Positions 27,301-64,000 of a stretch of 64,000 nucleotides of DNA are shown one piece after another. A program made the position numbers and the translations under genes. How positions within the stretch are numbered: the first letter of the stretch is position 1; every line of letters begins with the position of its first letter. The stretch is taken from positions 62,001 to 126,000 of the forward strand of contig QPGO01000187.1 of the NCBI GenBank assembly GCA_008632985.1, read 5' to 3'. This DNA is from Psammoneis japonica. Taxonomy: Eukaryota. Below the pieces are notes generated by a model. The model saw only the letters and a list, made by a program, of their open reading frames with translations, was not told where the DNA came from and searched no databases.

Positions 27301-27720
27301 AGCGAATTGCAGCAGTCAGGAACATCATCTTGTCTTCACAAGAGGCGTCTCGCTGGTTTTGATGCCCCGCCAATGAGAGCGATGCATCCTTTCACGTAAA
27401 ACTCGGTACGAATTCTCTTGCAATTGACACACTTGTCACAGCAAAATGTGGATGTCATGCATTGACATTTTTGGTAGGAAAAGGTTTGGTGGCAAGATCA
27501 AACATCGGTTGTTGCCGCATCATGGTTGGTTTGTTTTTGTCGCAGCGGCGCATGAATGTCGCAAAAAGTCTGTCCGTCGTACGCGACATCATGTGCTCAC
27601 CTGTCAGCAACATCAAAAATGATCGACAGACAATGGCAAACAACGCTCGTCGCCCTCGTCGTCCTCGTCGTCGTTGTGAGAACTGCTTGAGTAACAGCAG
27701 CACAGTAATCGAGCGGCGCC

Positions 27721-30149: not shown

Positions 30150-30955
30150 CATGTTGGCCATGTTGTCAATGTCATTGGGACCCAACACATGCTGAAACAA
30201 GTTTTGGCAAGCCATGTGGCCATCCTGGGTGCCCTGCACCAACTTGACATGCACCAACTTTGAGTGCTCCCAAGTCATCCCCAAGATGGTTTCCAAACCT
30301 TGACATCATCCACAGCGCAAGTGTCAGTGTCTTGCCATGACCATTGACAAGAGGTGCATGGGCAATCATCTCATCACAATCATTTGAACAACCAGCCTGT
30401 GGGTTGTCAGCCTCAAGAGCAACCTCCTGCTCATCACTCATCACACACAATGCAGGCAAGGGGTGCTTCATTCTCACCAGAGCTTGCATGCAGATGCTCC
30501 CCAATGGAGTTGAAGGTCTTAGGCCAGCCTTTTTCTAGAATGGTCGGCAGCTCCTCTGGGGACTTGTGGGCTGTCTTTGCAGTCTTGAGATGATGGATGC
30601 CATGTGCAGATGCCAAGGTGATGCCTGGGGGCTCCAGCATGTGAGAAATGCGCACATGGTGATGCGCCAGATGTGCACTCAGCTTGAGGTTTGTCTCAGC
30701 TCATGGGGAGACAGCAGTGCCCAAGTTGGCTTGCAGTGGATGAGCCTGTTCACCAGGCAGCACTGGTGGCAGAGCTTGAGCACCTCCTGGATGCCTGAGG
30801 ACCTTGCAAAGCTGCCAACCCTTGTGGTTGTCCATGTGTCCCAGCTCAGAAATGCTGCCAATGCCTTGTTCATTGGTTGTGGCATGTGCTGCCGCACTGG
30901 TGAAGCCCAGATGCACACATGGTGTGGCGTGCATGGCTGCGACTTGTGTGGCCAT
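30150..30955 (-). pseudogene. Degenerate Ty1/Copia (CoDi-type) gag
   Basis: LGFT..AA..EQGI.S..EL..LCKVLRHPGG..AETNLKL..WPKTF..APLACIV..EMIAHAPL matches the diatom CoDi gag pattern, with Tyr replaced by Cys/His. Confidence 0.7.
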
Positions 30956-31963
30956 CTTGGGTCACAGGTCACAGAAATTCAGCAGAAAAAAACACACACA
31001 CGTTTGCATTTTGCCCAAAAAGTGAGCAGATTGCATGAGTTTTCAGCAATTTTGATGGTTGGACACAGGACTTGATGTCCTCTCTGTGCCACCACAGGAT
31101 CACATGCAGAGTTGTCGCATTGGACTGGCAAGTGGTGTGCACTTGGCTTGAACATGTGCACTCATCTGTTTCAATGAATCACAACAAATGACAGTGCTTT
31201 CATTCCTGTGTGAGTGTTCACATTGCACATTGTGTGAGCACATGCAAGTTGTCTCAAATGAACATGACAAACAACAGCATGTGTTTTGTGATCTGCAGAT
31301 GTTGATGTTTGCATTGTGCAAATGCACTGGGTTCCCACAGCCTGCTCAGCCCACAGCGAGTGTTTAAAATGTGTTGACAGCCCAAATGTGCAGTGCGACT
31401 GCACTGCAATTCTGACATTCTCACTCTGCGACATTCCATCACTCATGCATTTGCCTCCGCAGCAACTTGGTGACAAAAATGACATCCCATGGTCATTGTT
31501 GTGGTGCCATGCACCTGCGATGAATGCTTGTGAGACACATCAGAATTGTTGACACTGTCATCACCATGTGGTCGTGTCAAGCTCAAACAAATTCTGGGGG
31601 CAAAAATGCTGCACCCAACTGGCTCAAAATGTGACCAAACATTCAAAGATGTTTCCTGATTGTGCCCAATCAATTGAAACCCTAAATTTCAGGCAAACAA
31701 AATGTTCACATGCGCCACAACTCTTGGCACAATCAGTGCATTTGATTGTGGCTCTGACAAAGTCAAGAAACCATGCTGTTGTGATGCACATGGCAGAACA
31801 AGTGTCAACACATGCAGCGTGCAACTAAAGCCAAGAAGTGAGAGTGAGTGGTGATGTGCCATGAACTTTCCATTGTTGCCAATGTTTGCAGCTCAATGTC
31901 CTGTGAACAACAGACCACAGGCCACAGGTCAAACTCTTCATCAAGTGAACGCTGAGAAATGTT

Positions 31964-34900: not shown

Positions 34901-35228
34901 AGCTCACAAGTGTTTTCATCTTGGAAGTGCCTTTCATGCAAATGAGCAATCCAGAGTTTCCATTGAGTGATGCTCTTGCTGTTGCTCGCATGCTGACCAT
35001 GTTGTTTGCTGAAAACACACACAGCGCTTTTTTGCGACAACGAATCTTTGACTCCCATGATTTTCACAGAAAATGCACGCAGAAATGATTTTCACAATTT
35101 TCATCTCATGCCACCTTGATGACATGTGCATGCTGGCAAAGCTGTGTGCATGCTCAGCTCAACGAGTGTGATGATGTCATCACACACCACAGCCACATGC
35201 ATCCCACGGCAGCCCTTGCACAGGGGCG
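31964..35228. mobile_element. Non-autonomous Mutator-like (MULE) element, 3265 bp
   Basis: TIR C(A/G)CCCCTGTGCAAGGG at both ends and a perfect 9-bp TSD AGAAATGTT (31955-31963 / 35229-35237). Confidence 0.8.
34426..34687. mobile_element. 262-bp foldback MITE nested in the MULE
   Basis: TIR GGCCTGTTCCAGC(C/T)CCAGG(G/T)GATG, central hairpin ggtgagtgcacacaaaa/ttttgtgtgcactcacc and 4-bp TSD TGGT. Confidence 0.85.
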
Positions 35229-44861: not shown

Positions 44862-46564
44862 GGTTTACAATCTACTACAACGAGATGAAGAGTGAATGGG
44901 GCGTGTTGACGGCATTGCTGCGCTGCCAGGAGCGAGGAGCAACGGATTTTTCGAATTTTTCTCAAGGTCATTACAAAATTTGTCGTCGCATTATGCGAGC
45001 ATTGTCCTATTGCCCAACCCACAGCAGGGGCCATTTTTGTGACTTGGGCAGTGCCATTGGATGTCATTGCAGCTGCCCTGCCATGGAGGCTGCCAGCCGG
45101 AGAAACGCATGTTGTTGCGCTTCAGATTTTCAAACTCACGCAAGAAAGATCGCATGGGACCTTCAACTTGCGAAACTTCCCTCCGGCCAGGCCAGCACCA
45201 CCATGAAAAAGCAAGCGGGGGCCAGACGACGAGGACAACAACTCGACGTGGCTGTCAGACTTGGCAGAGAAACACGACAACGCACCAGAGAACAGTTTCC
45301 AGGCAGGGTGAACATCACACCACAATTGCTTTTTTGCAGAGGCTCAAAACGGAGCTCTCAAGCTCTGCCGATGTTCGAGAGCTGCTTCTTGGAGTCTGTC
45401 AGCACTGCAAGCCACCAGAGCAAGCTGCGAGCGTGCTCTTTCTTTTTGCCAACCTCGCGCACATTTGTGAGTGGAGAGCGAGCTTTGCACTGCCTCCCCT
45501 CTTGTGGATCTCATGCTCCTTGTTGATTGATGCCACAACTCTGCTGCAGCGCTGTGCGCAGGAGTGGGCAGGCAAAACAATGTCGCAGTGGCCTGGCAGT
45601 CTTTGTGATGCCCCTGTTTGTTGGCGCAGTCATCAGCTCTGTTGGGCGCTTTGGCTGTGGATGCAACATCCAGCATCTTGGCTGGAGCCCCTGGTTGATG
45701 ACCAACCCGGCACATTGTCAGTCAGTCAGCATGGGGAGCCCGCGCCAACTCAAGCCACAAAAGATGCAGCCGCCATGAGCAGATCCAAGATGATTGCTGA
45801 AACCAAAAACCTCAACAATGCTGCTGTCCCAGAAGGTGGCTTTGTGGCCAAGACATGGTCAAAATGTTTGACCGGGTCACTCTTTCAAAGTGAAGAGCTC
45901 TGTGAAGCACTTGGGGGTGCTGAAGTGATTTCCACAACAAGCCCAGTCAGAAACCTCAGGACAAGGAAGAGTCAAACTCCATCATCAAGAAGAAAGCAGA
46001 GACCTGTGTCTCAAATGCAAAGAAGAAGCACAAGGGAATGCAAAGAGGAGCTCAACCACTCCCATGATCAGCGCATCATCAACTCCACAACTCCAAAGAT
46101 GACTCCAAAGTGGACATCCGAGGAGGAGGCAAATGCAGTGCTGGTGGTTTCAATGCATTGGATGAGTGCACAAATGAAGGTCTGTCTGCCATCATGCTTG
46201 TGATGTGGGCCTGTCCCACAAACGAATTAAAAACATGAGAAACACCAGCTTCCACCAAGGCCTCCCCCTGTCATGCAAGAACAAGCTGACAAGACAACAA
46301 GCTCTGGGTTTTTTGGATCTTTGAAGAGATCCTTCAATCTGCTGATTGTCAATGGCTGCATTGTCCTTTCATTCTCCATTGTCAAATGCTTGTTTTGCCC
46401 CTGAGACATGAGAGGTGTGGAGCGCGGTTTTGAGGAAGAGCAAGACATGCCAAGCAGAGAGTCAAAAAACATTTGTGGGCTCAAACAACACTTGGATTTG
46501 CCAACCAGTCTCAGCTGCTTTTTCCTCAAAAGTCATCAATGCCAATTGCTTTTTGTGCTCAAAA

Positions 46565-47000
46565 TTGGCTGCTGGGCCAGTCCATGACTTCTCAACAAAG
46601 CTTTGACTCCAAAAAGTCAGCCACCCACTCTTGGCCATCACAGCCAACATTGTCATCTCCCTTGAGATCACTGTGCCATCACATGGAACAAAAATGTGTT
46701 CCAATGGAGTTGTTGTGCCATGAACGCCAATCTAGAAGGATTTTTGACAAGGCTGAAAATGACCATTGTTTGGGTCTTGGCTCACCTCGGTCGGGGGTCC
46801 CTTCACCCACATGCACTCACAGCGCTGGAGTTGCATGATGTGCATGTGGCTTGACAATGTCCAGAAGAAACTCTTGATGCACTTGAACAAAGAAAGCACA
46901 TTTTCCTGATGGCTGTGGTTGTTTGCACCAACAGAAAACAGAGACAATCACAAGGTGCAGAGCTGCTGTTGCTCTTCCAAGTTTTCCAGAAAGATGCTGT
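46565..47000 (-). pseudogene. Third, highly degenerate partial copy of the SGNH esterase gene
   Basis: Colinear with 55235-55700 (aaaagtcagccaccc, catggaacaaaaatgt, gggtcccct) and translates EHIFVPCDGTVIS. Confidence 0.75.
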
Positions 47001-47585
47001 TACATGAGGTGCAACAAAGGAGCAAAAGTCCTCCCAATTGGCAGTGACAAAAGAGGAATGATGTGCCCATGCTGTGGTGAATGACCCCATGCCGAGATGC
47101 TTGGGCTCAAGAGGGGATGGTTTGTGCACAAAATGCAGAAAAGCTTTGCTCTCAGTGCGCCACAAGAATGCCCATGGACCAGCATCTCCAGGCACCAATT
47201 TCATCTTTTTTTGTGGCTGCACTCTGATGATGACCCTCTCTGATCTAGAGCAGCAGTTGGCAGTTTGCCATTTGGTGGAAGCACGGTCAATTTCCCGTCT
47301 GCGTCGATGAGACAGATGGATGGACGTGATCGTGATCGTGACATCATGACTGGGCAAGGGCGCGATGAGCCCGCCCGCCTAAAACCAAAATGCTTCCCCC
47401 CCGGATTGGGTGACCGACTTCTGCCGGCATGCGTGGCAGGGACCATCTCAAGCAAGAGAAGGACGGAACGATCAGAAGGAAGGAAAGTTTGCGAGATGAA
47501 TGCAACACTGCAGCTGCTTGCGAACACGATAAACTGAAATTTGCAGTCTAGAGAGATGCAACGGCGACAATGGGACAGTGCAATG

Positions 47586-48025
47586 TGCAGCTGCTGACAA
47601 GAGCCAATGTGTCACGGCGACGTGTTACAGCCTTTAAATGTCACAAAGGGCGTGACAAAAATGACCTTTGTCTGCATGCACACTGCATTGTGAATTCACA
47701 ATGCAGCAGTTCATCGCAGCCATCAGGCAGGAGGCCAGGGGTTCGAAACCCTGAGTGGGAGTTGTCTGCAGCAACGTTGATCACTGTCGAACGCGTAAAA
47801 ACTCTGTGCAGTTCTGCATGTTCCTTCGCACGCACCCACACTGTTCCGCCAAAACCGTGCAGTGTCAGCACACGTCAGTGAAGAGCCGCATGGACGCGTG
47901 ACACATGGGGAGGAGTGCAGCACACAGCTGCCAACAAGAGCCAATGCACCACGGCGACGTGTTGCAGCCTTTGAATGTCACAAAGGGCGTGACAAAAACA
48001 ACCTTTTGTCTGCATGCACACTGCA
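47586..48025. repeat. Two ~100-bp direct repeats ~337 bp apart
   Basis: acaagagccaatg..cacggcgacgtgtt.cagccttt.aatgtcacaaagggcgtgacaaaaa..tttgtctgcatgcacactgca at ~47586-47687 and ~47923-48025. Confidence 0.85.
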
Positions 48026-48236
48026 ATGGCTGCAGTTCTGCACAATGGTTTGAGTTGTGTTGCGGCCTTTGTCGTTGGTCATCAGAATGCAAAGCAACAT
48101 TTGTCACGGTGATGTGAGCGTGTCTCTGCCACCGCACGACCATTCACAAGATGTGGAATGTGTTCCCCGAGCTGTCCCCTGGCAATCAAGTGGCACTGTG
48201 AACCTCAATGCAAGAGCCATGTGCCACACCAGGCGT

Positions 48237-49049
48237 TCATTCCACACAAGTGATTTCAACGCAACTCTTTCCAACATCACCCGCATCCAATCTGAACACC
48301 CCTTTCATTGAGATTTCTTGATCAATCAGTTCTGCAGTTTCCGGAACACCAGTGGTTTCCATGTTTTCAAGTTCAACTTCAGCAGAGATGAAGAATTTGT
48401 TTGCAAGCCAACCGGGGCAATCCAAGTGGCAATTGGCATGCCCACAGGTTCCAAACATCAATTCCCAGAAAGCTTGAGCCGCCTCTTCTGCCATTTCATA
48501 GAAGTTTTCAGGAGGTTGGTTGTTGTCCTTTTCTTCATGTGCAAGGCAGATGAAGAACCGGCAGTGCGGCTTGGTCATTTCTGTCAGATCATTCTTCTCG
48601 AACAACGAATTCTCGCGGGCCTCGTGCTTGAGCTTCTTCTTCCTCCCTTCAATTTCCTCATGATTGGCATTGTCACACATCGGAATTGATTTGTTCGGAA
48701 ATTCTCGGTTGAGCCACGCTTGTTCCAAGCGTGTGCACAAGTCGGTCACGGTGTCGTCGTTTTTGTCACAGGGTGCTTCCAGCCACTCAGCGTGACCCGT
48801 CAGCACCTTCATGTCAAAAGAGCAAGCCAGAAATGCAGCAGGGGACAAATTCTCTTCCTTCATGATTTGCGCACAGCCTTTGTACAGTTCATGACTTTCT
48901 GTCCTGCCAAAGTCGTCTTCTTTCTTGAGAACTGCTTGAACAACAGCATGCCAATGCTGCGTTGCAAGGACTTGCAGCCCACGCTGAACACCCTTGTCGA
49001 GTTGGTCAAAGGAAGTCATGGAAGGCTTGTTGTCAAAAGTGGCACTCAA
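48237..49049 (-). pseudogene. TpA-depleted ORF of unknown function
   Basis: 270-aa protein-like ORF with only 2 Tyr, inside a mutated domain. Confidence 0.35.
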
Positions 49050-49301
49050 GATGATGGCAAGGTGGGGAGGATGAAGAGACGCAGCACGCAGCGATCACAG
49101 CAATGCTGGATGCTTCACCGCTGCAACCTGCAACGCACGCAGAGCCTTCTTTCATTGTTTGTTTTCTTTTGTCATTTTTTGGCTTCACGCACAGACCGAC
49201 GGACAGATTGCATGACTGCTCGAAGCATGACATGCGTGAGCAGAAGAACAAATCATTGACCACTCAGTGGTTGGTGATTGCAGACTTTTTCGTGTCGGTC
49301 C

Positions 49302-49352
49302 GGCAGTCGGGCAGTGGGGCAGTGGGGCAGTGGGGCAGTCGGGCAGTCGGGT
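49302..49352. repeat. 8-bp tandem repeat GGCAGT(C/G)G x6
   Basis: ggcagtcg/ggcagtgg units seen directly. Confidence 0.85.
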
Positions 49353-51098
49353 TGTCCGTCTGAATTTGAAAGTGTGTCCCTTGGATTTTGAAAGGGCATG
49401 GGTTGTTTAGTGCAGATGAATTCTTCGGATTCTTGGAATTGTCATTGAGGACATGAGAGGTTGTGGGGACATCCTAAAAAATTGACAAATTCCCTGCGAC
49501 TGGTGCGTGGCACGGTTTTTCAGGAGAGCTCAAAAGTTCTGAAAAATTGGGATTGCCGGCGTGGCATGTTCAAAAATGTGCTCAGTTACACACAAAGACA
49601 ATTTGTCATGAATTCCACACGAAAAAGTCACATTGGGGAAAACACATCAAACTGCAAGTGAGTTTGTGTGATGCGCTGTTGTGGCGATAAATTGGAAAAA
49701 AAAGAGTGTCCGTGCACCTCGCTGCAGCCCCAAAAATGGCATGAGACATCAAATGTGACGGTCATCCGCGTCACCGGTGCGGTGGCCACGCCACTCAGCC
49801 ACCACAATGCCGGCCCCGACGCAGGGCCCTGCGCACGTACAGGCAATGCAGCATGCAACGGCACACATGCACCCACACCCACAAAGAAAGACAAGTGGTC
49901 AATGCTCCCTGCAGGCCTGGTTGTGTTCAATCCCATCTGAATCCCATGCTCTAGCTCTGTCTTTTTTCACCGCCCCCGCAGCTCTTCATGTGACTCAACT
50001 GCAATCCATTTCTGTGTCTCCCGGCCCCAATGCAACAGAACCACACAACTCCATTGGCCATTTGTTGGCAGCCAGTGACCAGTGCAAAACACAGAGCAAC
50101 AGTGGCTCCAGGCTGGCGAAGCACTCGGCGGCAGCTCTTCTTTTGCCTCACAAGCCACAATTGCTTTTTTGACAGAGCCTCAGATTTGAACTCTCAACCT
50201 CCACCCCACCACCACCACCACCAGCAGCTCTTGCCCCAGCAAGCACGGCCGCGCCAGCAGCGGAATCAACAAATGCCATGATGCAACAGGATCCAAGGTG
50301 CGCTGCAGCAACCGCACATCAAACATTCTCTCTGTGGAAACCTCCCTGGTCGGTGGTGTGCTGTCTGTTGGCAAAAAAATTTCAGCAGAGTTGAAAAGAT
50401 CAAAAATGTGAAAAACTTGCAAAGATTGCACAGCAGGCACAACTGCAGCAAAGATGCTCCCACAGAATGCACAAGCAACTGGGTGCTGTTTGTGTGGCAC
50501 ACCAATCATGAGCACATGCACTTGGAAATCACAACCATTCACTGAGGCAATCCTCCCAGCTCAGCATTGCTGGCTGTCCTGAGATCACAACAAAAGCTCG
50601 TGTGTGGCTGGAGCATGTGCTGCTTCCTCAGCAAGCACCCAGCACCGCTGCTCTTGTTTTGCTTCCAGCACCAGCTTTGCCAGTGCCAGGTGCAACCTGA
50701 GTCTTTGAATTCCTTGTCATTTTGACTTGCTCAATGGCCAACCAGCTGATTCTTCAGCAATTGCTGGTCAATTGACCTCTGTCATTCTCTGACTCTGCTC
50801 TTCACTGTTGGCTGATGATCCTGATTTTGAGCACTCTGGTTGGTTGTGGTGCAAGCCACTGGCACCAGACCTCAAGCCAGAGCTTGCAACTCAAGGAACC
50901 CAGAACTGGAGCTCTTGCCAGAGAGCCACAATGGGTGGGTGGTGTGGCTGCAAGCAAAAACTCACTCTCAACTCGTCAACATGCAGTGCAACATTGGTGA
51001 AAGAAAAGAGTGAGGTTGCCATGGCTTGTCAGGTGCTTGCAGCCATGAGTGCTGCTTCTGCAATGCACAAAGCACCTCAGAAGCAGCAACGCACAGCA

Positions 51099-51372
51099 CC
51101 CCCCCCCCCCCCCCCCCCCCCCCCCNNNNNNNNNNNNNNNNNNNNNNNNNNNNNNNNNNNNNNNNNNNNNNNNNNNNNNNNNNNNNNNNNNNNNNNNNNN
51201 NNNNNNNNNNNNNNNNNNNNNNNNNNNNNNNNNNNNNNNNNNNNNNNNNNNNNNNNNNNNNNNNNNNNNNNNNNNNNNNNNNNNNNNNNNNNNNNNNNNN
51301 NNNNNNNNNNNNNNNNNNNNNNNNNNNNNNNNNNNNNNNNNNNNNNNNNNNNNNNNNNNNNNNNNNNNNNNN
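51099..51372. other. Poly-C run followed by assembly gap (N, 51126-51372)
   Basis: Seen directly. Confidence 0.99.
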
Positions 51373-51610
51373 AGAACAATCTCTTTCTCTCTCCTCAAGA
51401 GATGCACGTGTGGCAACAGCACCTGGTCTTAAGATTGCCTGGTGCAGCAGAGAGAGAGGCAAGTTCTCATCATCCAAAAGCTCACCAATGCAAGAGGAAA
51501 CTAAAACCAAAGTCACTTTCTACAGCAAGTTAACTTCTGACAAAGTTGCAATGTTGCACATGGCACCACATGAGCAGACAACAATGTCCGCAGTTGTCTG
51601 GCAGTCATCA

Positions 51611-52001
51611 CAACAACTCCATTTGTTGGTGCAACCATCGGCTCTGTCGAACGCATCAGCTGTCAGGCCAGTCCATGATTTCACAAAGCTTTGGTTCTAA
51701 AAAGTCAGCCACCCTTTCTTGGCCAAGCTGGTTCTTGTGTCAACAACTCCATTCATTGGTGCAGCCATCATCTCTGTCAAACGCATGTCAGCTGTTGGGC
51801 CAGTCCATGATTTCACAAAGCTTTGGTTCTAAAAAGTCAGCCACCCGCTCTTGACCAAGCTGGTTCTTGTGTCAACAACTCCATTCGTTGGTGCAACCAT
51901 TGGCTCTGTCAAACGCATTTGCTGTTTGGCCAGTCCATGATTTCACAAAGCTTTGGTTCTAAAAAGTCAGCCACCTGCTCTTGACCAAGCCGGTTCTTGT
52001 G
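51611..52001. repeat. 3 x ~130-bp tandem amplification of the esterase pseudogene 3' end
   Basis: Unit caacaactccatt..ccagtccatgatttcacaaagctttggttctaaaaagtcagccacc..ggttcttgtg occurs three times. Confidence 0.9.
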
Positions 52002-53563
52002 GCTGTCACAACCAATGTCACCAAATCCCATCACAACCGGGCCGTTGCATGGAACAAAAATGTGTTCGGTCAGAATGGTTGCACCATGCGCAATCTGAAA
52101 GGATTTGACAGCATCTTGTGCATGTGGACAAGGTTGACAATGATCGTTGTTTGGATCTTGGCTCAGTTCCGCCGGGTCCCCTTGCCCACATGTGCTCGCA
52201 ATTGTTGGAAATTCATTGTTTGTAAATGGCTTGTGGCAATCTGCACAAGAAACTCTTGATGTGATTGAACAAAAGTCTCATTGGAAGGTGCCCCCTCTTG
52301 GTGGTTGCAATCATTTCCACCAAGAGAGACAATCACAAGGTGTGGTTGCCACTCCTCAAAGTTCCAAAAAGGCAGTGTCTTGGTCTGAAGGGTTCGGTTG
52401 CAATGACCCTGCATTGTTTTTTTGCCAAGCGCCACTGGCAAATTCGCAAATGCACTCTGCATCAGTCCAATGCCTAAAATGGCTTGGACGCTCACCTCAG
52501 CATTCAAACGTTTTCCCAAGATGCCAGGACATGCAGAGTTGCAATTGTTGCATTTCCAGGGTTGAGCAAGATGGCTGCATGTTTGCGGAGTGCCATCCAC
52601 ACAAAAGCCTGCCACATCACTGGCACCAACAAAACCAGCCCAGCATGCTGGCAGTGTTGGTGGAGTTGAAAGAGTTGCAACAGCGTCATCCATTTCCACT
52701 CCATGGAATTCAAGCACCGGCATGGCTGACTTGCCCAAACCGTTGCCACAGGGTGCACCGCTTTTGTGTCAGCAATTTTGTCAGCGCCGACGCGTTCCAG
52801 GTCTGGGTGGGACCTCGCACTGCTGAGCTGTGACGTCGACAGTTTTTTTAATCACGTTTGCATGTCGCACACACAGATTTCTGCTTGATTTTTTCGACAT
52901 TTTGTGTCATTTTACGGTGCAGTCATTGAGCGATCCGTCCAAAAACTTTTGACATTTTTTGTCACAGCGCGATTCTGTGACGTCTTGAGAATCGCGCAGG
53001 GCAGGCGCACTTGCAAAAACGTCGAGTGGTGAGAGGCACAATTGTGCCACAAACTTGGCCATCTGTTTGATGTTGAAAACAAACACATCCATCAATTAAA
53101 TTCTCGCACTGCGGAGCTCGCACGTAGAATTCTACGGGCCCAATGTCACAAGGAGTCCCACCTGGGGCTGGAGCACGTCCGCCAATGCCGCGGTGTGCAC
53201 CCTGGTGCCTTCAATTTGAGTGCCATGTTTGTCCTTCTCTGGCTGAAACAAATTTCCTTTCAGAATTGTTGTTTGCTCCAGTTTGCTGGTGACTGTGTTG
53301 GCTGCGACTGCATTGAGCCCGCACCCGATGAATTTTTGCTCGGAGGGCAAGGATGCCATCTCTTCTGCAGTCATGTTTGTGTTGAAGTGCACTCTGCTGC
53401 ATGGCCAGTCCAACCTGACAACACCATTGTCCTCAAGCTGTTGCCAGTGACCTGCAAAACTGAAGTTCTCTGCATTGTTTGCAGGACAAAAGGTTCCTTC
53501 AACAACAGCAGCGCTCAAGGCAACAACAAGACTTGCAACAGCACAAACAGTTGAAATCCTCAC
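51915..53563 (-). pseudogene. Full-length hypermutated copy of the SGNH esterase gene, interrupted by a MITE
   Basis: Colinear with 55232-56464, and its 3' flank (~51430-51650) matches ~55020-55230. ATG has become GTG and Tyr has become Cys/His throughout (GNDY to GNDC, WKYNN to WKCNN). Confidence 0.93.
52789..53179. mobile_element. 391-bp MITE
   Basis: Absent from the intact paralog. Imperfect ~25-bp TIR GACGYGYTCCAG..GGTGGGAC and 4-bp TSD CGCC (52785-52788 / 53180-53183). Confidence 0.85.
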
Positions 53564-53919
53564 AGCAACACGACGGCTGTAGCTTGAAAAGCAACAAGGT
53601 TGGTGCTGTCTGTTGGCAGTGACACCATAACCATGGGATGGTTTTTGTTCGATGTGCACAACTTTCGAACTTCAAAACTGCGACGGGCGTCGGGACGGCT
53701 GGGGGACGGACGTCAGTCCACGGGGATTGTCTTGTCAGTGTCTCGGGTGTGTGTTGGTCTTGATTCTGTGCCTCATTGCAGGCGTTGTCTGCCTTGCGGC
53801 TTGCGGCGCACAGAAGTTTTCAGTTTTTCGATAGCTACAGTAGCTAAGCATCTAGCATTGCATCAAGAATCAAGAAGAGTGGAAACAGATTGACGATTAT
53901 AAAACCATCATCATACACC

Positions 53920-54713: not shown

Positions 54714-55231
54714 TCCGACTTTTGTTGGCGGAAAATCGCAGCACGTTCACACCATTCCAAAATATGCCAGTGCGTAACGAAACGTCAGTGTATTGCACAT
54801 TAGACATTGTCTATTATAACAGCTAAAACCTGTAAACTATCCAATACGACGTGTGTTGAACCTACTCACGGCAAGAGTGACTCTGTTGCGCACGACGCTG
54901 TCTTATGTCTTTCACCAAAGATTCTTATGGCAAAATAAGCGGTTGACGCTTTGCGACTTAGCTGACACTTAGGAGCCCAAAGCGATTGAAAAGTCACATC
55001 TGTGTAGCTACAGCTCATAATCTCGAGACTACACCGGTGCAGAAGAGAGAGGAAAGTTCTCATCACACAAGAGCTCACTAAGTCTGAAGGAAGAAGCTGA
55101 AATAATACGTCGCCCTTTGCAGCAAGTTAACTTCCGATAATGCCAAAATGCTGCCGTGGCACTACATGGGTAGGCTACGACAGTCATCGCAACACCTCCG
55201 CTCGTTGATGTAGCCATCGGCTCTGTCGAAC

Positions 55232-56464
55232 TTATTGGCTGTTGGGCCAGCCCATGATTTCACGAAGCTTTGGTTCCAAAAAGTCAGCCACCCGCTCTTG
55301 ACCAAGCCGGTTCTTGTGGCCGTCACAACCAATATCACCATCTCCCGACACAACCGTGCCGTCGCATGGAACAAAAATGTATTCGGTCGGAATGGTTGCA
55401 CCATGCATAGTCTGAAAGGATTCGACCGCGTATTGTATGTACGGACAAGGCCGACAACGATCATTGTTTGGATCTCGGCTCAGTTCCGTCGGGTCCCCTT
55501 GCCCACATATACTCACAATTGTTGGAATTTCATCGTTTGTATATGGTTCGGCAATCTGTAAAAGAAACTTTTGATATGCTTGAACAAAAGTCTCGTTGGA
55601 AGGTACCTCCTCTTGGTGGTTATAATCATTTCCACCAAGAGAAACAATCACAAGGTGTGGTCGCCACTCTTCAAAGTCCCAAAAAGGCAGCGTCTCTGTC
55701 TGAAGGGTTCGGTTGTAATAATCCTGTATTGTTTTTTCACCAAGCGCCACTGGCAAATTCGCAAACGCATTCTGCGTCAGTCCAATGCCTGATATGGCTT
55801 GGACGCTCACCTCGGCATTCAAACGTTTTCCCAAGACGCCAGGATATGCAGAGTCGCAATTGTTGTATTTCCAGGGTCGAACGAGATGGTCACATGCTTG
55901 CGGAGTACCATCCACACAAAAGCCTGCCGTATCACTGGCACCAATAAAACCAATCCGGTGTACCGGCAGTTTTGGTGGAAGCGAAAGAGTCGCGACATCG
56001 TCATCCATTTCTACTCCATAGAATTCAAGCACCGACGTGGCTGACTTGCCCAAACCATTGCCATAGGGTGCCGCTTGTGTCAATTTTGTCAGTGTGACGG
56101 TGTGCATTCCGGTGCCTTCAATTCGAATGCCGTATTTATCCTTCTCTGGCCGAAACGAATTACCTTTCAGAATCGTTGTTTGCTCCAGTTCGCCGGTGAC
56201 TGCGTTGGTGACGACTGCGTTGAGCCGCACCCGATGAAGTTTTACTCGGAGGGTAATGACGCCATCTTCTGCAGTCATGTTTATGTTGAATTGCACTCTG
56301 CTGCACGGCCAGTCCGACCTGACAACACCATCATCCTCAAGCTGTTGCCACCGGCCTGCAAAACTGAAATTCTCTATGTTGTTTGCAGGATAAAAGGTTC
56401 CTTCAACAGCAGCACTCAGGGCAACAACAAGACTTGTAACAGCACACACAGTTGAAATCCTCAT
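55232..56464 (-). CDS. Secreted SGNH/GDSL hydrolase, carbohydrate esterase CE2-like (410 aa)
   Basis: Signal peptide MRISTVCAVTSLVVALSAA, N-terminal FAGRW..DWP domain, and blocks IGFIGASDTAG, AISGIG, SLGGNDY, GCDGH. Confidence 0.88.
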   Translation of the reverse strand: MRISTVCAVTSLVVALSAAVEGTFYPANNIENFSFAGRWQQLEDDGVVRSDWPCSRVQFNINMTAEDGVITLRVKLHRVRLNAVVTNAVTGELEQTTILKGNSFRPEKDKYGIRIEGTGMHTVTLTKLTQAAPYGNGLGKSATSVLEFYGVEMDDDVATLSLPPKLPVHRIGFIGASDTAGFCVDGTPQACDHLVRPWKYNNCDSAYPGVLGKRLNAEVSVQAISGIGLTQNAFANLPVALGEKTIQDYYNRTLQTETLPFWDFEEWRPHLVIVSLGGNDYNHQEEVPSNETFVQAYQKFLLQIAEPYTNDEIPTIVSICGQGDPTELSRDPNNDRCRPCPYIQYAVESFQTMHGATIPTEYIFVPCDGTVVSGDGDIGCDGHKNRLGQERVADFLEPKLREIMGWPNSQ

Positions 56465-56752
56465 AGTAACACAACGACTAGTTCCTATCTTGAAGAGCAG
56501 AAATGTTGGCGGTGTATGTCTGTTGGTAACATCATGAGGATGGTTTGTGCGATGCACGCAACAACACAGCACCGTCCGCGAATTTTTATGAGTTATGTAT
56601 ATTTATATGAACACAACGGAAATTTTTGTCAATGGTGTTATGTAGTTTTTAACGGTTATCCGTTAAATTTAGTCTTGTTTGGCGAAGAACATAATACTGT
56701 TTATGCATTATTTATTCATGTGCCTTTCTATGTTTTGAGTCGTGAGGGCTGT

Positions 56753-56783
56753 TGATGACTTATGATGACTTATGATTACTTAT
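56753..56783. repeat. 10-bp minisatellite (TGATGACTTA)n, left part; continues at 62170-62262
   Basis: The same unit lies on both sides of the Gypsy element. Right-hand units mostly read TGATGACTTG or TGATGACTTT. Confidence 0.9.
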
Positions 56784-56945
56784 TGCAAGGTCTAACGAGA
56801 TAAAGACTTCAGTGATAACAAAATTGTGAGCGAAAGACCGAGGTAACGAGGGTCGCTTTCAGCGAAGCCCGTTACAACGGCTTCCGTTATATCTAATAGG
56901 TTCATTAATACTATATATCAGAAAAATAAGGTGCGAGACACTGCA
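56784..56945 (-). repeat. 3' LTR (TpA retained)
   Basis: 149/162 identical to 62008-62169 by hand alignment; adjoins the PPT. Confidence 0.95.
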
Positions 56946-56959
56946 CTCTTCCCTTCCAT

Positions 56960-58182
56960 GATTCGAGTGTCGAGAATCATGCGGGACTCAAAAAATTTAA
57001 ATTCCAATGGATGAGGATAGAAGGGAAACCCAAATGTTGGGGAGAAAACCCTTAACCTCAGGTATGATACGGTACGACGCGATGTATATTCAATCGTTCT
57101 GTCACATGAGGTGTACGTTGGACCGTAAGTGTGCCGTTGGCGTGTGCTTGAACGACAGGACATGGACCGTGAGCTCGTGGCTCGAGCTTGGTTGGGTCGA
57201 CAGCCTTGAGTAGAACTTGTCCGCCAACTTGAAAATCGTAGGATCAGCGTTTAGCGTTGGCTCGATGGAGATTCGCATTAACAATTGTTTGTCGGTGTTC
57301 TTGAATGGCAGCAAGATCGGCTGGGACCGGCAAGTCAAGAATCATGTCATGTTGAAAAACCACAGCACCGGGTGAAATCTTGAGAGCACGAGAAACCGCA
57401 CATCGCATTGCATGCATGGCAGTTGCCAATGCATTGTCCACTAGTTGATTGGCCTGCTCAACATTCTGTGGAGGACAAACATGAAGCAAAGTGCGCAAGA
57501 TGTTTCCAACAGTTTGATGCATGCGCTCGCGTGCCGCACTGGCTTGTGGATTTCGCGACGCAGTCGGAGCGTCTTCTACTCCTGCTCGTTGCAATGACAA
57601 TTGAAAGTCCTCTCCAATGAATTCTCCACCATTGTCATGGATGCACCGGTTGGGATGAGGATGACGAGACAACCAACAATTTTCAAATTGTTGAGCAATG
57701 TGAGACGAGGTTTTGTTGTCGATGCGAACAAGTTCAGTCACATTCGAAACGGCGTCAATACAAGTCAAAGCGTTGAATTCGATTTCATGGTTTTGAATTT
57801 CAATTTTCCAGGGACCGATGAGGTCAACCGCAACTTCCGTCCATGGTGATAAAGGCGCTTCCCGTTCAGGCAGGTCCCCATGTCCAGGGCCCAAAGTTTT
57901 CAAACGTTGACAATCAGCACAATGAAATCCTTCACAGGATTGACGAAGGGCAGGATGACAGAAATGTGCGCCAACAGTGGAATGCATTCGGTGCACTCCT
58001 GCATGTCCCAAAATCCCATGACACCATCGTATGATGTCGTGCAGCAACGCCGTTGGAACACAAATTTTCCACGCAGTCGGAGGATCATTCGGTCGAGCAC
58101 GACAACAAATTACAGGACGCTGATTCACATGTTCCACAACGAAGCGTTCTGGACATTGTTGTCGCACATTGTTCAGCTCCAC
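56960..58182 (-). pseudogene. Gypsy integrase
   Basis: H-x4-H..CADC zinc finger, VAVDLIGP, HDNGGEF and NPQASAARERMH. Confidence 0.9.
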
Positions 58183-58206
58183 GTCGACGAATTGGCATTC
58201 TTGAAT

Positions 58207-60540
58207 TCATTGCACAGTTGCAGGGTTTTGCATTTCCTCGAGAGAAGGACAGTTCAAAAATGATTCACACAATTCGGGGTCGTCCACGACAGAAGAATAA
58301 AATGGAGATGGTTCTTCACGACGACAGGAAAAATGAGACACACTGTTTTGGTCGTCCAGTTCTTCTTCATGCGGTGGCACAGCAGGGTCGATCGTCTTAA
58401 AATCAATCAGCTTGCCCTTGTCAGGAGCACACTTCCCTTCCGCAGGAGGGTCCACACGCGGCAATCTTGAAAAACAATCCGCCAAGAGACCATCTTTGCC
58501 ATCAACGCATTCGAAAGTTGGGGCAAAATCTTCCAAGAAGAGTCGCCACCTAAGAACTCGTTGAGAATTGAGCGCACGAAAGGTGAGATTTTTATGATCC
58601 GTAAAAACAGCACAGTCAGCTCCAAATGACATGCTTCGAAATTCTTTGAAACACATTGCCACCGCCAACAATTCTTTTTCAATCGTAGAGCAGTTCTGTT
58701 GTGCTGCGCTGAGTTTCCGGGACCAGTGAGCCACTGGTTTCCCGTCTTGCATAATTGCGGCTCCCATCTGACAGTCCGAAGAGTCAGCACAAATGTGGAA
58801 TGGTTTGTTGTGATCCGGGTGGACCCAAAGGGTGTCGTCCAGCATCAAGGTTTTCACATCTTCAAAGGCTCGTTGACATTCAGGGGTCCATTCCAACTTG
58901 CTCTTGCCTGTCAACTTTGTGAGTGGAGCGAGCACGTGTGAGCGACGAGGCCACATGTTGCGACAATAAGTTGCTGCACCGACAAACGATCGCAGTTGCG
59001 TCACAGTTTTAGGTGGTTGCATTCGTAGCACCGCTTCCACTTTCTTCTTCCACGGTCGGACTCCTGCAGGCATGAGCCAATGGCCTAAAAAATCCGTCTC
59101 TTGGACACACCATTCGCACTTGAGTGGGTTAATTTTCAGATTGTTCTCTTCTAGTCTGGATGACAGCTCATCGAGTCGACGCATGTGAGCATCAAACGAA
59201 TCATCAAATTGAGCAATGTCATCGATGTAAGTTTCAACATCGACTCCTTTTGCCACTTTTTCAATGATGGCTTGAGCAATGTCGGGAGAGGTTTTCAAAC
59301 CCATGGCCAATCGACAACATCGAAATTTTCCAAACGGAGTAACAACAGCACACAAATCCTTGGATTCTTCGTCAAGCTCGATGTGACAATAAAACACAGT
59401 GAGGTCCAACTTGGTCAAGTGCTTGCATCCCGAGCGTCGGTGAATAACGTCTTGAATGATCGGCAGAGGACAGACCTTTCGCTTGAGCACCTTGTTCAAC
59501 TCACGAAAATCGGATGCCCATTGAACTCGTCCATCCTTTTTGGGAGTTGCAAAAGTTCCGGCTGCCCATTCAGTTGGTCCCACTGGTTCCAGTGCGCCAA
59601 CATTACATGGATGTTGCAGTTCTTTCTTAAAAACGGCTTCATCCCTCTTGGACACTTCACAAGCCTTAGAATGGAAGGGAACAGCATTGGGATCAACTTC
59701 CAAGTGAACAGTCTCATGCGGACATTTGCCAAGCATTCCATCAAAGAGGGTTTCATGCTTTTCAAGCACTGCCTGTAGCTCATCACGTTGTTCTTGAGTT
59801 AAGTGAGTTTGAGCTTGCGCCACTTTCGCGGATGATGCTTTCTCGCACTTGGCGTCCATCACAAAAGATTGTCCGAAGGCTTCCTCATCGTCTTCGTCTT
59901 CTCCGTCGTTTTCCAGTGCATCCAACCAATTCTGAACTGAGTTCCAATGATTGGATTGCTTCATTGGGATCGACGTTTCCAACCACTTTGTTGTTCCAAA
60001 TCGAAAATCAAGCACGATTCCGGCTTTCGACAAAAAGTCTTGTCCCAAAATTAAATCATGCTTGCATGGGGCATCAAAAACTTGAGCCGCAATGCTGTCG
60101 ACTTGTTTTGACTTGTCAAATTCTGGCAATGTCAAGTCCTTCATAATGACGCATCGGGAGGATTCACATCGTCCGGCTGCCGTCTGAAAGCTCAACCGTC
60201 CTTCATCGTTCATGGTTGGATTCGCTCCCTTCGGCAAAACTCGAGAATGAACAAGAGTGTCAGCACCTCCTGAATCCAATGGCACTCGCAACACTCGCTC
60301 ACTCTCTTGATTTTGAATGGCACGCACCGCCATCAACGTCGTTGGCACCACATTCAATGGTTTGGGAGTCGCAGTTTTAGGGGTTGGCTCAGCGCACTCC
60401 AAAACGCCGCCCAATTTTTCTTCATTCACAGCATGAGATTCCATCAGGTCTCCCACATTGTCATCAACATTAAAACATGTGTTTTCTTCACGATCACACG
60501 AAACATAAAAAGATTGAGCGACACGCTCTGACTCGGGCAC
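58207..60540 (-). pseudogene. Gypsy pol: aspartic protease, RT, RNase H
   Basis: LDSG, DFRELN, TPFGKF..MGL, YIDD, FLGH, ADSSD, SRKL..EKELLA and FTDHKNL. Confidence 0.95.
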
Positions 60541-60552
60541 TTCCGTCCCTTG

Positions 60553-61774
60553 TCAATTACGCCAACTTCGTTGGCCTTGATGGGTGCGACCGTTCTGATC
60601 GCATCCATTTCCGCCTCGCATCTCACGAGGCCCTCCTTGATCAAAATGGTGCGACTCCATTTGCCAGCCACCAGGGGGAGCTGCTCCAGCCGGATTTCCA
60701 CAGCCTTGGGCATCACCGTTGGCTTGGGTGCCGTTTTGATTTTGGCAATAGGATCCATTCCCTTGAGAATTCTGGGAGTCATTGTAATTGCCGTAACCTC
60801 GGCCTCCACATCCTCCTTGATTGCCATGACTGCCACGTCCTCGACCTTGGAAGTTGCCACGACCTCCTCGACCTTGGGGTCCTCTGCCTTGGCAGTTTCC
60901 TCGGCCTCCACCACGACCTCCGCTACGACCGCCACGGTCGGACCTCGGTCGATGGTTTTGGCTTTCTGGATTCAAAATGCAATCCTTCCACTTGTGGTCA
61001 TGATTCGCATGCACCGGGCATCTAGATTCTGGATCCGTTCCACCACTGTTGCCACGAGAGCGTCTTGAAGCTTGAGACGAAGCACCATTGCTTTTCCTCT
61101 TCTTGTCCTGCTTCTTGTTGCTGCTCTTGTCAGCAAAAGATTTCTCATTGTTCGTGTGACTGATGATCTCAGCGAGAGCATCGTTTGCTGTCGCTCGTCC
61201 TGCTCGAGTGCACATCTCACGCCACGGACGAGGGAAGCTGTCGAATGTCATCTTTTTCTTCTGAGCTTCGTTGACTTGAGGAGCATTTCCCGGAAGTTTG
61301 TTGGAGTGCCGAATCAAGGTTTCCATGCGATCTGCATGCGCCCGCACTTCAGATTTGAATGGTTTTTTCAAAGTTGGCAAATGTTCAATCATCACATCAT
61401 GCGCTTCATCATCACAATAAGACAAGTAAAAACGATTGATTTCCTGATCAAAACGCTCGACAGTTTTATCGGCATCGTCAATTGCATTGGTCAAGTTCAC
61501 CCACTTGTCCTCTGCAGCATCCGCAAGCACTTCCTCGAAATTTTCGAACAACTCCTCGCCAGTGGTGCACTCCAATTTCACAGCAATTTTACGAAAACGA
61601 TCCTCAACGAACAACAATGCTTCAATGCCATGAGTGCCATCAAAACGCGGACACTTTTTTGTACGAGTGCTACCGTCATCATACGATTGGGTCAATTTCA
61701 CGTCCTCCAAGTCAGAATGCTCAAATTTAGCTTCACAGCCAATGCAAGGCTCCTTCAACGATTCACTCATCATG
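60553..61774 (-). pseudogene. Gypsy gag
   Basis: Open frame upstream of pol with CPVH..HKWKDC knuckle and RGG-rich tail. Confidence 0.85.
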
Positions 61775-62007
61775 AAAAAGGGAATGCAATTGTTCAACAG
61801 TCCTTTCCAGGGACTCCACCTTTGACTCCAAATGATGCACTCGGCTCGCCAAATTCTGTTCGTGTCGTTTACGTTGTTGCACTTGTTTCTGGTGCTCAAC
61901 AGCCCAAACTGCTGCTCCTGCGCGCAGTTCTCTTTTCTCACGTTTGGTCAATTTGTTTGCATTGTTCCCAGTCTCCACCCAGTTCTTTGAATCGACTGTA
62001 ATTACAG

Positions 62008-62169
62008 TGCAAGGTCTAACGAGATAAAGACTTCAGTGACAACAAAATTGTGAGTGAAAGACCAAGGCAACGAGGGTCGCTTTCAGCGAAGCCCGTTACA
62101 ACGGCTTCCGTTGTGTCTAATGGGTTCATTGGCACTACATGTCAGAAAAACAAGGTGCGAGACACTGCA
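62008..62169 (-). repeat. 5' LTR (TpA converted)
   Basis: Direct repeat of 56784-56945. Confidence 0.95.
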
Positions 62170-62534
62170 CTTGTGATGACTTATGATGACTTGGGATTGC
62201 TTGTGATGACTTGTGATGACTTTTGATGACTTTTGATGACTTGTGATGACTTGTGATGACTTCACTTAGGAAGTCGAGTGTGCGGTTCCCGTGCGAAGGA
62301 CAGCCAGCTGTCTGTCTGTGCAAAAATGTCATCAACACGAGAAGACGGAAAGGACGCGTTGATGTTGACTGGCATCAACTATGGCGTTCAAAACAACAAT
62401 CAGCAAAGCCATGAAAGTAAAACCATGATTACCACAATGAAGAATTCAACTACTTTAGGTGCTGCAAATGTGAGCGTGCGGCCAGAAGCACGCGCAATTG
62501 GGCAGTCTGAGGCATCGTCAACACAAGTTGCGAG

Positions 62535-63026
62535 TCAGTTCTTGTTTTTCTTGGACTTGATGAGCCAGTGAGAGCGCGACAAACAGTCCCTCTTCTCCTG
62601 ACAAATGTGATCTCGAAATGCTTTCAACGGGAAAGCCGCGCAAGCTTGGCGGGTTGCTCGTGGCTTCTCCGGCTCGATCTTTGTCTTGTCGCGAATCGAC
62701 GTGTCGACGTCAATCTTGAGCCACCTCTCCACCTCGGATCCCTGCCAACGAGGATAGCCTCGGAAGGCATGCGGTGCAGGAGGATGCAAACGCAGGTCGT
62801 GCAAGAAATCAGCCCTGTCTTGTTTGGCACGGGCTTGCCCGGCAGCGATGGTTTTCCGAAGATTGTTCAGGTTGCTCTGAAAACGCTCACAGGGGAATTC
62901 TTGAAATTCGGGGCACGTTTGGCAGATGGCTTTGGGTCCCATTCTGTCAACCTTCTTGGAAATGATGTCTTCCCCAAGAAGCATCTTTGCCTTGCTGTGC
63001 TTCCAACCTTTTTTTCCTCTTGCCAT
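62535..63026 (-). pseudogene. Degenerate two-repeat ORF (W..S.A..LL..D ... R.EY..F....FR.HIYQE type)
   Basis: WKHSKAKMLLGED..PEFQEF..RF and WQGSEVERWLKID..AFPLKAFRDHICQE. I recall this family as repeat-associated in diatoms; unverified. Confidence 0.5.
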
Positions 63027-63421
63027 GGTCATCGTTCCCTGTTGGCTCTGTCGTCTTGGTTCTGCTGTGTGCTGTGGACTGGCCAGGAAATCGCCAAAAA
63101 TTGTTTTGCCACAAAACTTTGGAATTTGAGTGGGCGGCACATTTCTACGTGCACACTAGATTTTCGGTGCATTTCTGCGAAACTCAGTGAGAAACAAAAA
63201 CCATGTGGAAGCGCACAGGCAGAGATTGCCAGGTTAACCCGGCAAAAAAATTTGAGTTTGAATCCCTCTTGTTGATCCTCGAAGGAAAATGTACATTGTG
63301 TTGTCTTTGCAAACACACATGGGAAAAACATTTCCCACGCTTGGCACGAACAAAATTTTGGAGGTTTAGCGAGGCAAAGTTCTCGCTCAAGTTCTTTCTT
63401 CATTGCATGCACAGCAGCTCA

Positions 63422-64000
63422 ATGAGCAGCAGTGGCAGTCAAAACCAACAGCTGCAGCAGCCACTTTCCTCTCCATCGCCCAACAGGACCAGGAGATCCA
63501 TCGGAAGCAGACGTTGCGACTCTGTTCCCGCAGCTGTCAACCAAGCAATCATTGAATCGCTGCTCCGTGATGGGACCGTCTTGTTCTCCGACTTTCACAA
63601 CAACGAACTTTGCGGATCAGCCGACAAGTCCGAGGAAAGAAGAGCTAGAAACCAATTTGACGTCATCCGCCGCTGGCTGAACTGTCAACCCAATCATTTC
63701 GACAACTTGGTCAGAGATCTCGAAGCAATCGAAGACACGCCGGAACCGGAAGAGCCTTCACCAGCAGCCGCACCAGCAGCGGTGCCAGCAGCCGCACCAG
63801 CAGCAGAACCAGCAGCATCAACACGAAGAGCCATGGCGAGCAAGTGCTGCATTGTTCCATTTTTTACAACTGTTTTGCATCTCTCACCATCACGTCGCCT
63901 TCTTCTTTTGTTCTTTTGCAGATGTCTTTGATGGTGCCAACGAGACGGCGGAGCTCCTGGCCATCGAGATCAAGGTCAGGACATTCAACTTAGTCCGACC
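63422..64000 (+). pseudogene. Divergent ORF with PAAA repeats, partial
   Basis: MSSSGSQ..PAAAPAAVPAAAPAAEPAA, with a possible intron at ~63845-63920. TpA-depleted. Confidence 0.35.

Follow-up and report, generated by a model that had tools for sequence, protein, structure and literature searches.

The retrotransposon and its altered tyrosines

The window analysed here is a 64,000-bp stretch of Psammoneis japonica DNA (contig QPGO01000187.1, positions 62,001 to 126,000). At 56784-62169, on the minus strand, it carries a complete Ty3/gypsy long terminal repeat (LTR) retrotransposon of 5,386 bp. An earlier note on this DNA had claimed that conserved tyrosines of pol read cysteine or histidine in this element, through changes of TAY to TGY or CAY (Y, pyrimidine), and that the enzyme is thereby crippled while its frames stay open. 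The analysis below shows that the missense changes are real, but that they are one face of a general loss of TpA (the dinucleotide TA), which also reaches a non-coding LTR and the host flank. The loss of tyrosine is a by-product of dinucleotide-specific TpA mutation.

The Pfam matches of pol follow the Ty3/gypsy order (a weak Asp_protease_2, then RVT_1, RT_RNaseH(_2), Integrase_H2C2 and rve), and pol is colinear with relatives of ~1,100 residues, in which protease, reverse transcriptase, RNase H and integrase (PR-RT-RH-IN) are fused. Among the matches listed, the named pol relatives come from diatoms (Cyclotella, Cylindrotheca). The closest relative has 61% protein identity; when it was compared with the element by tblastn, residues 33-1140 were aligned in a single frame and no frameshift was found over the 1110 aligned residues. 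One continuous minus-strand frame spans 61947-57244, and the in-frame stops of gag-pol are exclusively TGA, never TAA or TAG. The claim of open frames therefore holds as far as frameshifts, TAA and TAG are concerned, but not for TGA, since two premature in-frame TGA codons lie in pol. This pair truncates the integrase, and its origin is not the TpA process. A further TGA, at the border of gag and pol, may be native, because the gag and pol relatives in the databases are separate proteins. With the two premature TGA codons, and with 20 of 23 conserved pol tyrosines replaced, gag and pol of this copy are not intact. No Pfam family was matched by gag, the C-terminal third of which (60556-61000, minus strand) is a long Arg-Gly-Gly-rich low-complexity stretch in place of the usual zinc knuckle.

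The retrotransposon copy is young. Its LTRs are direct repeats of 162 bp with TG...CA ends and are 92% identical (62169-62008 versus 56945-56784). The target-site duplication of 5 bp (ACAAG/ATAAG) matches at 4 of 5 positions, and the mismatch is itself a TA/CA pair. The element was inserted into a host 10-bp minisatellite, which is present on both sides of it. From the depth of the run X1 contigs, summed to 2,100-3,100 over the element versus ~55 on neighbouring single-copy DNA, the family may be estimated, very roughly, at ~40-55 copies of at least 90% likeness.

For the comparison of pol, the best 120 of 284 relatives were used; a column was scored if at least 60 relatives covered it and its consensus reached 60%, and the internal stop of the copy was entered as X. 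Twenty-three conserved columns are Tyr. At these the element has Y 3 times, C 14 times, H 6 times and no other residue, whereas at the remaining 505 conserved columns it keeps 420 (Fisher p = 2e-12). Cys or His is thus found at 20 Tyr columns in the element, and at more than 3 in no relative. When the relatives themselves depart from Tyr at these columns (n = 273 cells), they have mostly F (150), followed by H (68), with C in just 4 cells; His is frequent among them at column 491 only (34/120), so the relatives do not contradict the reading. The tyrosine content of the element is 6/464 in gag, 5/781 in PR-RT-RH and 0/320 in integrase, and the medians of the relatives are 3.6% Tyr, 1.9% Cys and 2.9% His.

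The seven pol motifs pointed out in the earlier note hold nine Tyr sites; all of these are scored columns, each with Cys or His where it was said to be and with Tyr in the relatives. In the numbering of pol plus integrase, the element has C at residues 412 (Y in 119/120 relatives), 530 (118/120), 588 (93/120), 594 (111/120), 621 (119/119) and 682 (106/115), and H at residues 578 (108/120), 609 (115/119) and 964 (97/98). The proposed direction, with TA ancestral, was borne out as well: Tyr is kept in the 120 diverse relatives, with this copy as the exception, and the LTR pair, a lipase gene duplicate and 79 related elements, all described below, agree with it. Against all 34 gag relatives found, the 10 Tyr columns of gag read Y 3, C 3, H 3 and F 1.

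Other substitutions in pol also fit TA to TG or CA, namely I>V (10), V>A (4), T>A (3), L>S (3), L>P (2) and M>V (2). Altogether the element differs from the consensus at 105 of the 528 conserved columns: 38 differences can be explained by a single TA>TG/CA change. The others comprise 5 CpG-type differences, 13 other transitions, 29 transversions and 20 that need multiple changes. The last two classes are expected, because the nearest relative diverges by 39%.

Two fragments elsewhere in the window had been cited as showing the same change. The motif ALDACGK (25336-25356, plus strand) does so, since its Cys corresponds to Tyr in 60 of 61 dynamin/Mx-like relatives. It lies in an open reading frame (ORF) at 24961-25575 (plus strand) that corresponds to the C-terminal portion of a dynamin/Mx-like GTPase, for which 142 relatives were found, the full-length ones with Dynamin_N and Dynamin_M. 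The DNA of this ORF has intermediate TpA (observed/expected 0.26-0.38), with one conserved Tyr changed to Cys and two others retained. This could represent a gene fragment on which the TpA process has only begun to act. The motif APLACIV, which had been assigned to a CoDi gag, was located at 30446-30466 (minus strand) within an 88-residue ORF (30437-30700, minus strand), in which no gag family was found by Pfam.

TpA-depleted domains and the direction of change

The observed/expected ratio of TpA is 0.16 in the element and 0.30 in the whole window. When the window was scanned in 500-bp bins, six sharply bounded depleted blocks were found, at ~3900-12900, 21400-23000, 26000-27500, 30000-35200, 45000-53500 and 57400-64000. 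They contain 176 TA in 32,406 bp, versus 1,116 TA in the 31,594 bp of gene-bearing DNA. The pooled ratios of the blocks are TA 0.08, CA 1.66, TG 1.64 and CG 0.52, and those of gene-bearing DNA are TA 0.52, CA 1.23, TG 1.22 and CG 0.94. ApT is near expectation in the element (0.96). CpG of the element is also normal (0.9), whereas the older depleted blocks have CpG ratios of 0.16-0.6. Because the element has kept its CpG while the older blocks have lost CpG too, TpA loss is separate from CpG decay and faster.

Related elements do not share this depletion. In 79 of them, taken from metagenomes, TpA observed/expected is 0.47-1.08 with a median of 0.73. One possibility would be that the family avoids UpA/TpA by selection or compositional adaptation, for example as protection against an RNase or a restriction-like activity, and UpA avoidance is indeed described as common in RNA viruses and expressed RNAs (PMC3829696). 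However, the relatives have normal TpA and normal Tyr contents, conserved tyrosines have been destroyed, one LTR has been spared, and the changes extend to non-coding LTR sequence, the host flank and a pseudogene. Selection is therefore refuted for practical purposes, and we regard its probability as negligible.

The depleted blocks fill gene-free intervals, and their edges lie at most a few hundred bp from genes. ORFs with host-type Pfam matches (ECM29, CCCH, RING-IBR, SWEET, AAA-like ATPase, guanylate cyclase, MYND and GDSL lipase) are all in normal DNA, where the host genes are long uninterrupted ORFs; an ORF at a block boundary (12820-13431) is the CCCH host gene. In contrast, the 102 ORFs of at least 100 residues that overlap the blocks yielded one zinc knuckle and a few weak Pfam matches below the cut-off, one of which, to GDSL lipase, is the decayed lipase duplicate described below. 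The zinc knuckle (CCHC, 10871-11404, minus strand) is the sole transposon-type Pfam match in the older depleted blocks and is probably what remains of the gag of another retroelement, in the 3900-12900 block.

One domain edge falls inside the retrotransposon. There are 7-11 TA per 100 bp at 56600-57099 but 0-1 from 57300 on, so that the final 350-500 bp of the element and its 3' LTR are spared; further in, from 57500 to 62000, TpA is lost without any trend along the element.

Several other observations concern the depleted DNA. In 9 kb around 57400-64000 there are 40 ORFs of at least 80 residues, in several frames and on both strands, among them a 310-residue ORF antisense to gag (61069-61998, plus strand) and another example at 59164-59775 (plus strand). 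Long ORFs occur on both strands of the depleted blocks because TAA and TAG have been lost. The segment 34426-34687, within a depleted block, matches its own reverse complement at 70% over ~260-280 bp, and is thus palindromic. Summed X1 contig depth reaches 55,000-95,000 (versus ~55 for single-copy DNA) at 47336-48002 and 52672-53338, which are extremely abundant repeats.

Three internal comparisons reveal the direction and timing of the change. First, the LTRs of a retrotransposon are identical when it inserts, and here they differ at 13 positions. At 10 of these the 3' LTR has TA and the 5' LTR has TG or CA, with no difference in the reverse direction; two others are CpG-type and one is another transition. 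Expressed per base, 10 of 30 bases in TA have changed (33%), 2 of 20 in CG, and 1 of 114 elsewhere (0.9%). Since both LTRs started out identical, these changes arose in the chromosome, in one LTR. Secondly, the insertion divided the host minisatellite, and only its 5' side is converted, with CTTA in 3 of 3 units on the 3' side and in 1 of 9 on the 5' side, which means that host DNA outside the element was affected. Thirdly, a lipase gene has a decayed, TpA-depleted duplicate 3 kb away. Self-comparison aligned 51873-52784 with 55190-56092 (86% identity) and 53191-53662 with 56098-56562 (82%). From gene to duplicate, TA became TG or CA at 38 sites versus 3 in reverse, and for CG versus TG/CA the counts are 50 and 6. 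The expressed-looking paralogue is spared. A third, more distant lipase fragment (46564-46891, 68% identical) likewise lies inside a depleted block, and a 132-bp unit from the 3' region of the lipase gene is present in three tandem copies at 51611-52001.

These comparisons bear on whether the element was edited before integration, that is, whether its RNA or cDNA was mutated (by an ADAR-like activity on double-stranded RNA or an APOBEC-like one on cDNA) and the mutated copy then inserted. Retroelements are the classic targets of such editing, ADARs favour a 5' U (as cited in bioRxiv 10.64898/2026.01.13.699255), and on the sense strand of pol TpG has been gained more than CpA. The one-directional LTR asymmetry nevertheless largely refutes this explanation. 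In addition, conversion extends beyond the element into minisatellite and single-copy flank, the lipase duplicate, which is not a retroelement, bears the same signature, no trend in TpA loss runs along the element, and AA is not depleted (observed/expected 1.26-1.30), unlike in ADAR hyper-editing. Editing before integration is thus very unlikely. The process is post-integration and regional, and is not restricted to repeats or retroelements. Nor is it symmetric on homologous copies, since one LTR and one lipase paralogue are spared.

It might also be asked whether the substitutions exist in the DNA at all. Modified bases cause systematic base-calling errors in some long-read data, and a modification at TpA, together with 5-methylcytosine at CpG, in silenced DNA might have been misread by the sequencing chemistry; in agreement with this, both TpA and CpG appear as TG/CA in the same older blocks. 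However, the X1 contigs, which may be the assembly's own data and are thus no fully independent check, reproduce the depleted stretches with 2 differences in 839 bp (51977-52815) and 3 in 919 bp (49895-50814). Moreover, the conversions are partial and copy-specific, and the LTR difference would need a modification confined to the domain. We consider such an artefact highly improbable. Over the window, 7 of the 40 listed differences from the X1 contigs (232 in all, from a single sample) are TA versus TG/CA.

Three further candidates were rejected. Biased gene conversion is without dinucleotide specificity. For an alternative genetic code at TGA there was no evidence; host ORFs were not examined for such a code. 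Fungal repeat-induced point mutation (RIP) runs in the opposite direction, and would not have left one LTR and one lipase paralogue spared. The features of the locus are listed in Table 1.

Table 1. Annotated features of the retrotransposon, its flanks and the neighbouring lipase copies
Feature	Position	Strand	Remarks
Decayed TpA-depleted lipase duplicate	51873-53662	-	82-86% identical to 55190-56562; 5 TA vs 45 in the gene copy
GDSL-lipase-like host gene	55235-56602	-	TpA normal; start ATG ~56464, ~320 bp from the spared 3' LTR
Minisatellite, spared side, with target-site duplication ATAAG (element orientation)	56753-56783		CTTA 3/3 units
3' LTR, spared	56784-56945	-	15 TA
Polypurine tract	56946-56959	-	ATGGAAGGGAAGAG, immediately 5' of the TG of the 3' LTR
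C-terminal end of the integrase, to the true stop TGA (57060-57058)	57058-57243	-	Edge of spared zone; Tyr retained (SYDF, VVPY)
TpA-depleted domain edge	57130-57280		Shift in TA density
Second premature TGA, within integrase	57244-57246	-	Arg in closest relatives; alignment runs on in-frame
Integrase zinc-binding and core domains	57247-58206	-	Tyr 0/320; Tyr columns 817, 844, 891, 964
Premature TGA between RNase H and integrase	58207-58209	-	Column in relatives: W 34, N 33, T 14, R 7 of 120
pol: protease, reverse transcriptase, RNase H	58210-60552	-	Pfam; TpA observed/expected 0.17
In-frame TGA, gag|pol border	60553-60555	-	gag and pol in one frame
gag	60556-61773	-	ATG at 61773; 34 relatives found, best 46% identity; RGG-rich C-terminus
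5' LTR	62008-62169	-	162 bp, TG...CA, TpA-depleted, 5 TA remaining
Minisatellite, depleted side, with target-site duplication ACAAG	62170-62262		CTTA 1/9, CTTG 6/9, CTTT 2/9
Flanking DNA	62263-64000		Single-copy by depth from ~62680; TpA observed/expected 0.04-0.14 (bins from 62501); no Pfam family in its ORFs

Sequence context and proposed mechanism

At 60 TA sites the ancestral state is known. TG is now found at 25 of them, CA at 23, unchanged TA at 7 and other dinucleotides at 5, while CG is found at none. As TG and CA are about equally frequent and CG is absent, the two strands are targeted to the same extent, and a hit on either one abolishes the site for its partner.

Survival of TA depends strongly on the neighbouring bases. 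By tetranucleotide it is 0 for ATAT, 0.03 for ATAC, 0.07 for both ATAG and GTAC, 0.10 for CTAC, 0.13 for ATAA, 0.25 for CTAG, 0.27 for GTAA, 0.34 for CTAA and 0.53 for TTAA. A multiplicative model in which the strands are hit independently fits all ten classes, with fitted survival of 0.15, 0.28, 0.45 and 0.79 when the base 3' of A is T, C, G and A, respectively. For pol, survival was also calculated against another baseline, namely the DNA of those 30 among the 79 relatives that gave long matches. It was 0.03 for ATA, 0.04 for GTA, 0.20 for CTA and 0.48 for TTA, which is the same order, and on the 3' side 0.38 for TAA and ~0.15 for the other contexts. The preferred site is therefore RTAY (R, purine), TTAA is spared, and TAT and TAC are the best targets, TAA and TAG the poorest. 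Tyr codons have been lost almost completely because TAT and TAC are these best targets.

The results are probably best explained by a post-integration host process that changes TpA to TpG or CpA (A:T>G:C, at TpA only) in sharply bounded, gene-free domains, and that has hit a young element. The element integrated first, and TpA was then converted in the chromosome. The data establish the signature, the direction, the timing after integration, the domain edges and the context preference, whereas an enzymatic agent and a role in genome defence are proposed from them. The affected domains coincide with gene-free and presumably silenced DNA, comprising transposon relics, a gene duplicate fragment and single-copy flank. 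Destruction of TA is unable to create TAA or TAG and strips both from all six frames, so that the frames stay long. That the spared end of the element lies near the start of the lipase gene would fit a link to chromatin state.

Enzymes of the TadA/ADAT2 type act on the A that follows U33 in the anticodon loop of tRNA. The most likely agent would be a DNA adenine deaminase of this type, needing a 5' T. Alternatively, a thymine-modifying enzyme acting at TpA would leave an identical pattern; because TpA and RTAY are both palindromic, an adenine editor and a thymine editor are inseparable by sequence.

It is also conceivable that no dedicated enzyme is involved, and that a lesion or replication error at TpA is repaired in open or transcribed chromatin, so that silent blocks slowly lose TpA. 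The position of the depleted blocks in gene-free intervals with edges near genes, the spared 3' LTR next to a gene start and the lowish TpA (0.52) of gene-bearing DNA too would all be compatible with this. But a slow loss is difficult to reconcile with the huge contrast between TA and other bases in the LTRs, or with an element young enough to have zero frameshifts and unreduced CpG. In Bigelowiella natans, furthermore, the corresponding signature arises at ~1000-fold the normal rate, in bursts and in some lines only, which points to a regulated activity (bioRxiv 10.64898/2026.01.13.699255). Passive loss without an enzyme is accordingly judged unlikely.

Several points weigh against a domain-directed host process. 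The enzyme and the chromatin state are both inferred. Gene conversion could in principle explain the spared 3' LTR, instead of a domain edge. TpA is itself low in gene-bearing DNA, below the median of the related elements from other organisms; this reflects either a genome-wide low-rate leak of the process or a low baseline of the species. Most of the 105 protein differences are unpolarisable, because the closest relative is just 61% identical and because 29 are transversions and 20 need at least two changes. The context preference assumes that ancestral TA contexts were like those of the background or the relatives, and sites that bear on it directly are scarce (19 mutated and 1 unchanged where both flanks are favourable, 2 and 2 where neither is). 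Finally, the sense strand of pol has 100 TG per kb versus 65 in relatives and 70 CA versus 73, where strict symmetry predicts otherwise. The strand split is not significant for Tyr>Cys versus Tyr>His (14 vs 6, p = 0.12), nor for TG-type versus CA-type changes at the protein level (23 vs 15, p = 0.26).

More tentatively, the host process might be a base-editing defence of the diatom lineage that is targeted to domains, recognizing RTAY in silenced chromatin, changing A:T to G:C until hardly any TpA is left, and acting on any DNA inside the domain rather than on repeats as such. It would disable proteins through missense changes while long open frames are kept, and it is perhaps an old defence shared with Bigelowiella across the whole SAR group (stramenopiles, alveolates and Rhizaria). 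If so, the long open frames could seed new genes and would mislead the annotation of genes and transposons.

Significance and comparison with known systems

Taken together, the above results make this stop-free hypermutation, which erases TpA from presumably silenced DNA, the second eukaryotic case by lineage, after the recently described one in B. natans. In the literature searched, targeted A:T>G:C chromosomal hypermutation has so far been described in one preprint for one species. Near-saturated blocks in another, distant lineage would establish it as a broader eukaryotic genome defence rather than a curiosity. The locus offers a clean natural experiment, with two LTRs, two parts of one minisatellite and two paralogues to compare, and it constrains the mechanism: action after integration, sharp edges next to genes, no symmetric homology trigger, a preference for RTAY, and a single hit that disarms the site. 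A natural enzyme behaving in this way would edit adenine or thymine in double-stranded chromosomal DNA in a context-specific manner.

The process also matters in practice. Domain searches fail in the depleted blocks, as the single transposon-type match, the zinc knuckle, among 102 ORFs illustrates. Gene finders are misled by false long ORFs on both strands, with Tyr-poor, Cys/His-rich 'proteins' being predicted. Ages based on LTR divergence are badly overestimated, the raw divergence here being 8% versus ~1% outside TpA and CpG.

The element is of the Ty3/gypsy type with named diatom relatives, like the GyDi elements, to which it is likened by description (Maumus et al. 2009, PMC2806351). In the portion of that article on diatom gypsy elements which was covered, the terms 'hypermut' and 'dinucleotide' are absent, and no report of TpA hypermutation in diatoms was found in the literature searched.

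Like RIP in ascomycete fungi, the process is a hypermutation by transitions at a specific dinucleotide; it inactivates transposons and duplicated genes in situ and can extend into neighbouring DNA. RIP, however, changes C to T at CpA, generating TpA and stop codons, whereas in the present case TpA is destroyed and TAA and TAG cannot arise; RIP also mutates both members of a repeat. Editing by APOBEC3 (G>A) or ADAR (A>G) is similar in being deaminase-type hypermutation found in integrated retroelements, and ADARs and TadA/ADAT enzymes favour a 5' U or T. Those activities, however, act before integration on cDNA or RNA and are strand-biased, whereas here the changes followed integration, are balanced (25 TG to 23 CA) and reach host DNA. 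The decay of CpG driven by methylation likewise yields TpG and CpA and marks silenced blocks, and the older blocks show it too, but in the element CpG is normal and most TpA is lost.

The closest parallel is B. natans, for which the preprint of Mettrop et al. (bioRxiv 10.64898/2026.01.13.699255) is the sole description of a TpA hypermutation signature found in the literature searched. Its mutation-accumulation lines were reported to have gained 231 mutations in two integrated viral regions, of which 230 were A>G/T>C, all at TpA; reverse transcriptase and DDE domains were over-represented among low-TpA genes, and an ADAT2-like enzyme was proposed as candidate. There are differences. By its named pol relatives our locus groups with the diatoms, not with the chlorarachniophytes, and the long, intron-free host ORFs were also taken as diatom-like. 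The best database match of its ECM29-like host protein has 48% identity, and the only named match, at 30%, is a Bacillariaceae metagenome-assembled genome; the genome is thus not that of B. natans. Its targets are an LTR retrotransposon, a duplicated host-gene fragment and flank; and depletion is near saturation (0.04-0.17, versus 0.45 in the B. natans viral region). New mutations were measured directly in B. natans, whereas the present evidence comes from sequence comparison. The RTAY preference and the in-place LTR asymmetry described here are absent from the Results and Discussion of the preprint, the supplements of which may hold overlapping context data. The two cases agree in the essential features. 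In both, A>G/T>C changes at TpA give TpG or CpA (here at 48 of the 60 TA sites), TpA is lost and CpA and TpG are gained in clustered windows (here six sharply bounded blocks), and foreign or repeat-derived DNA, including reverse-transcriptase genes, is hit with a bias towards GC, the opposite of the usual direction.

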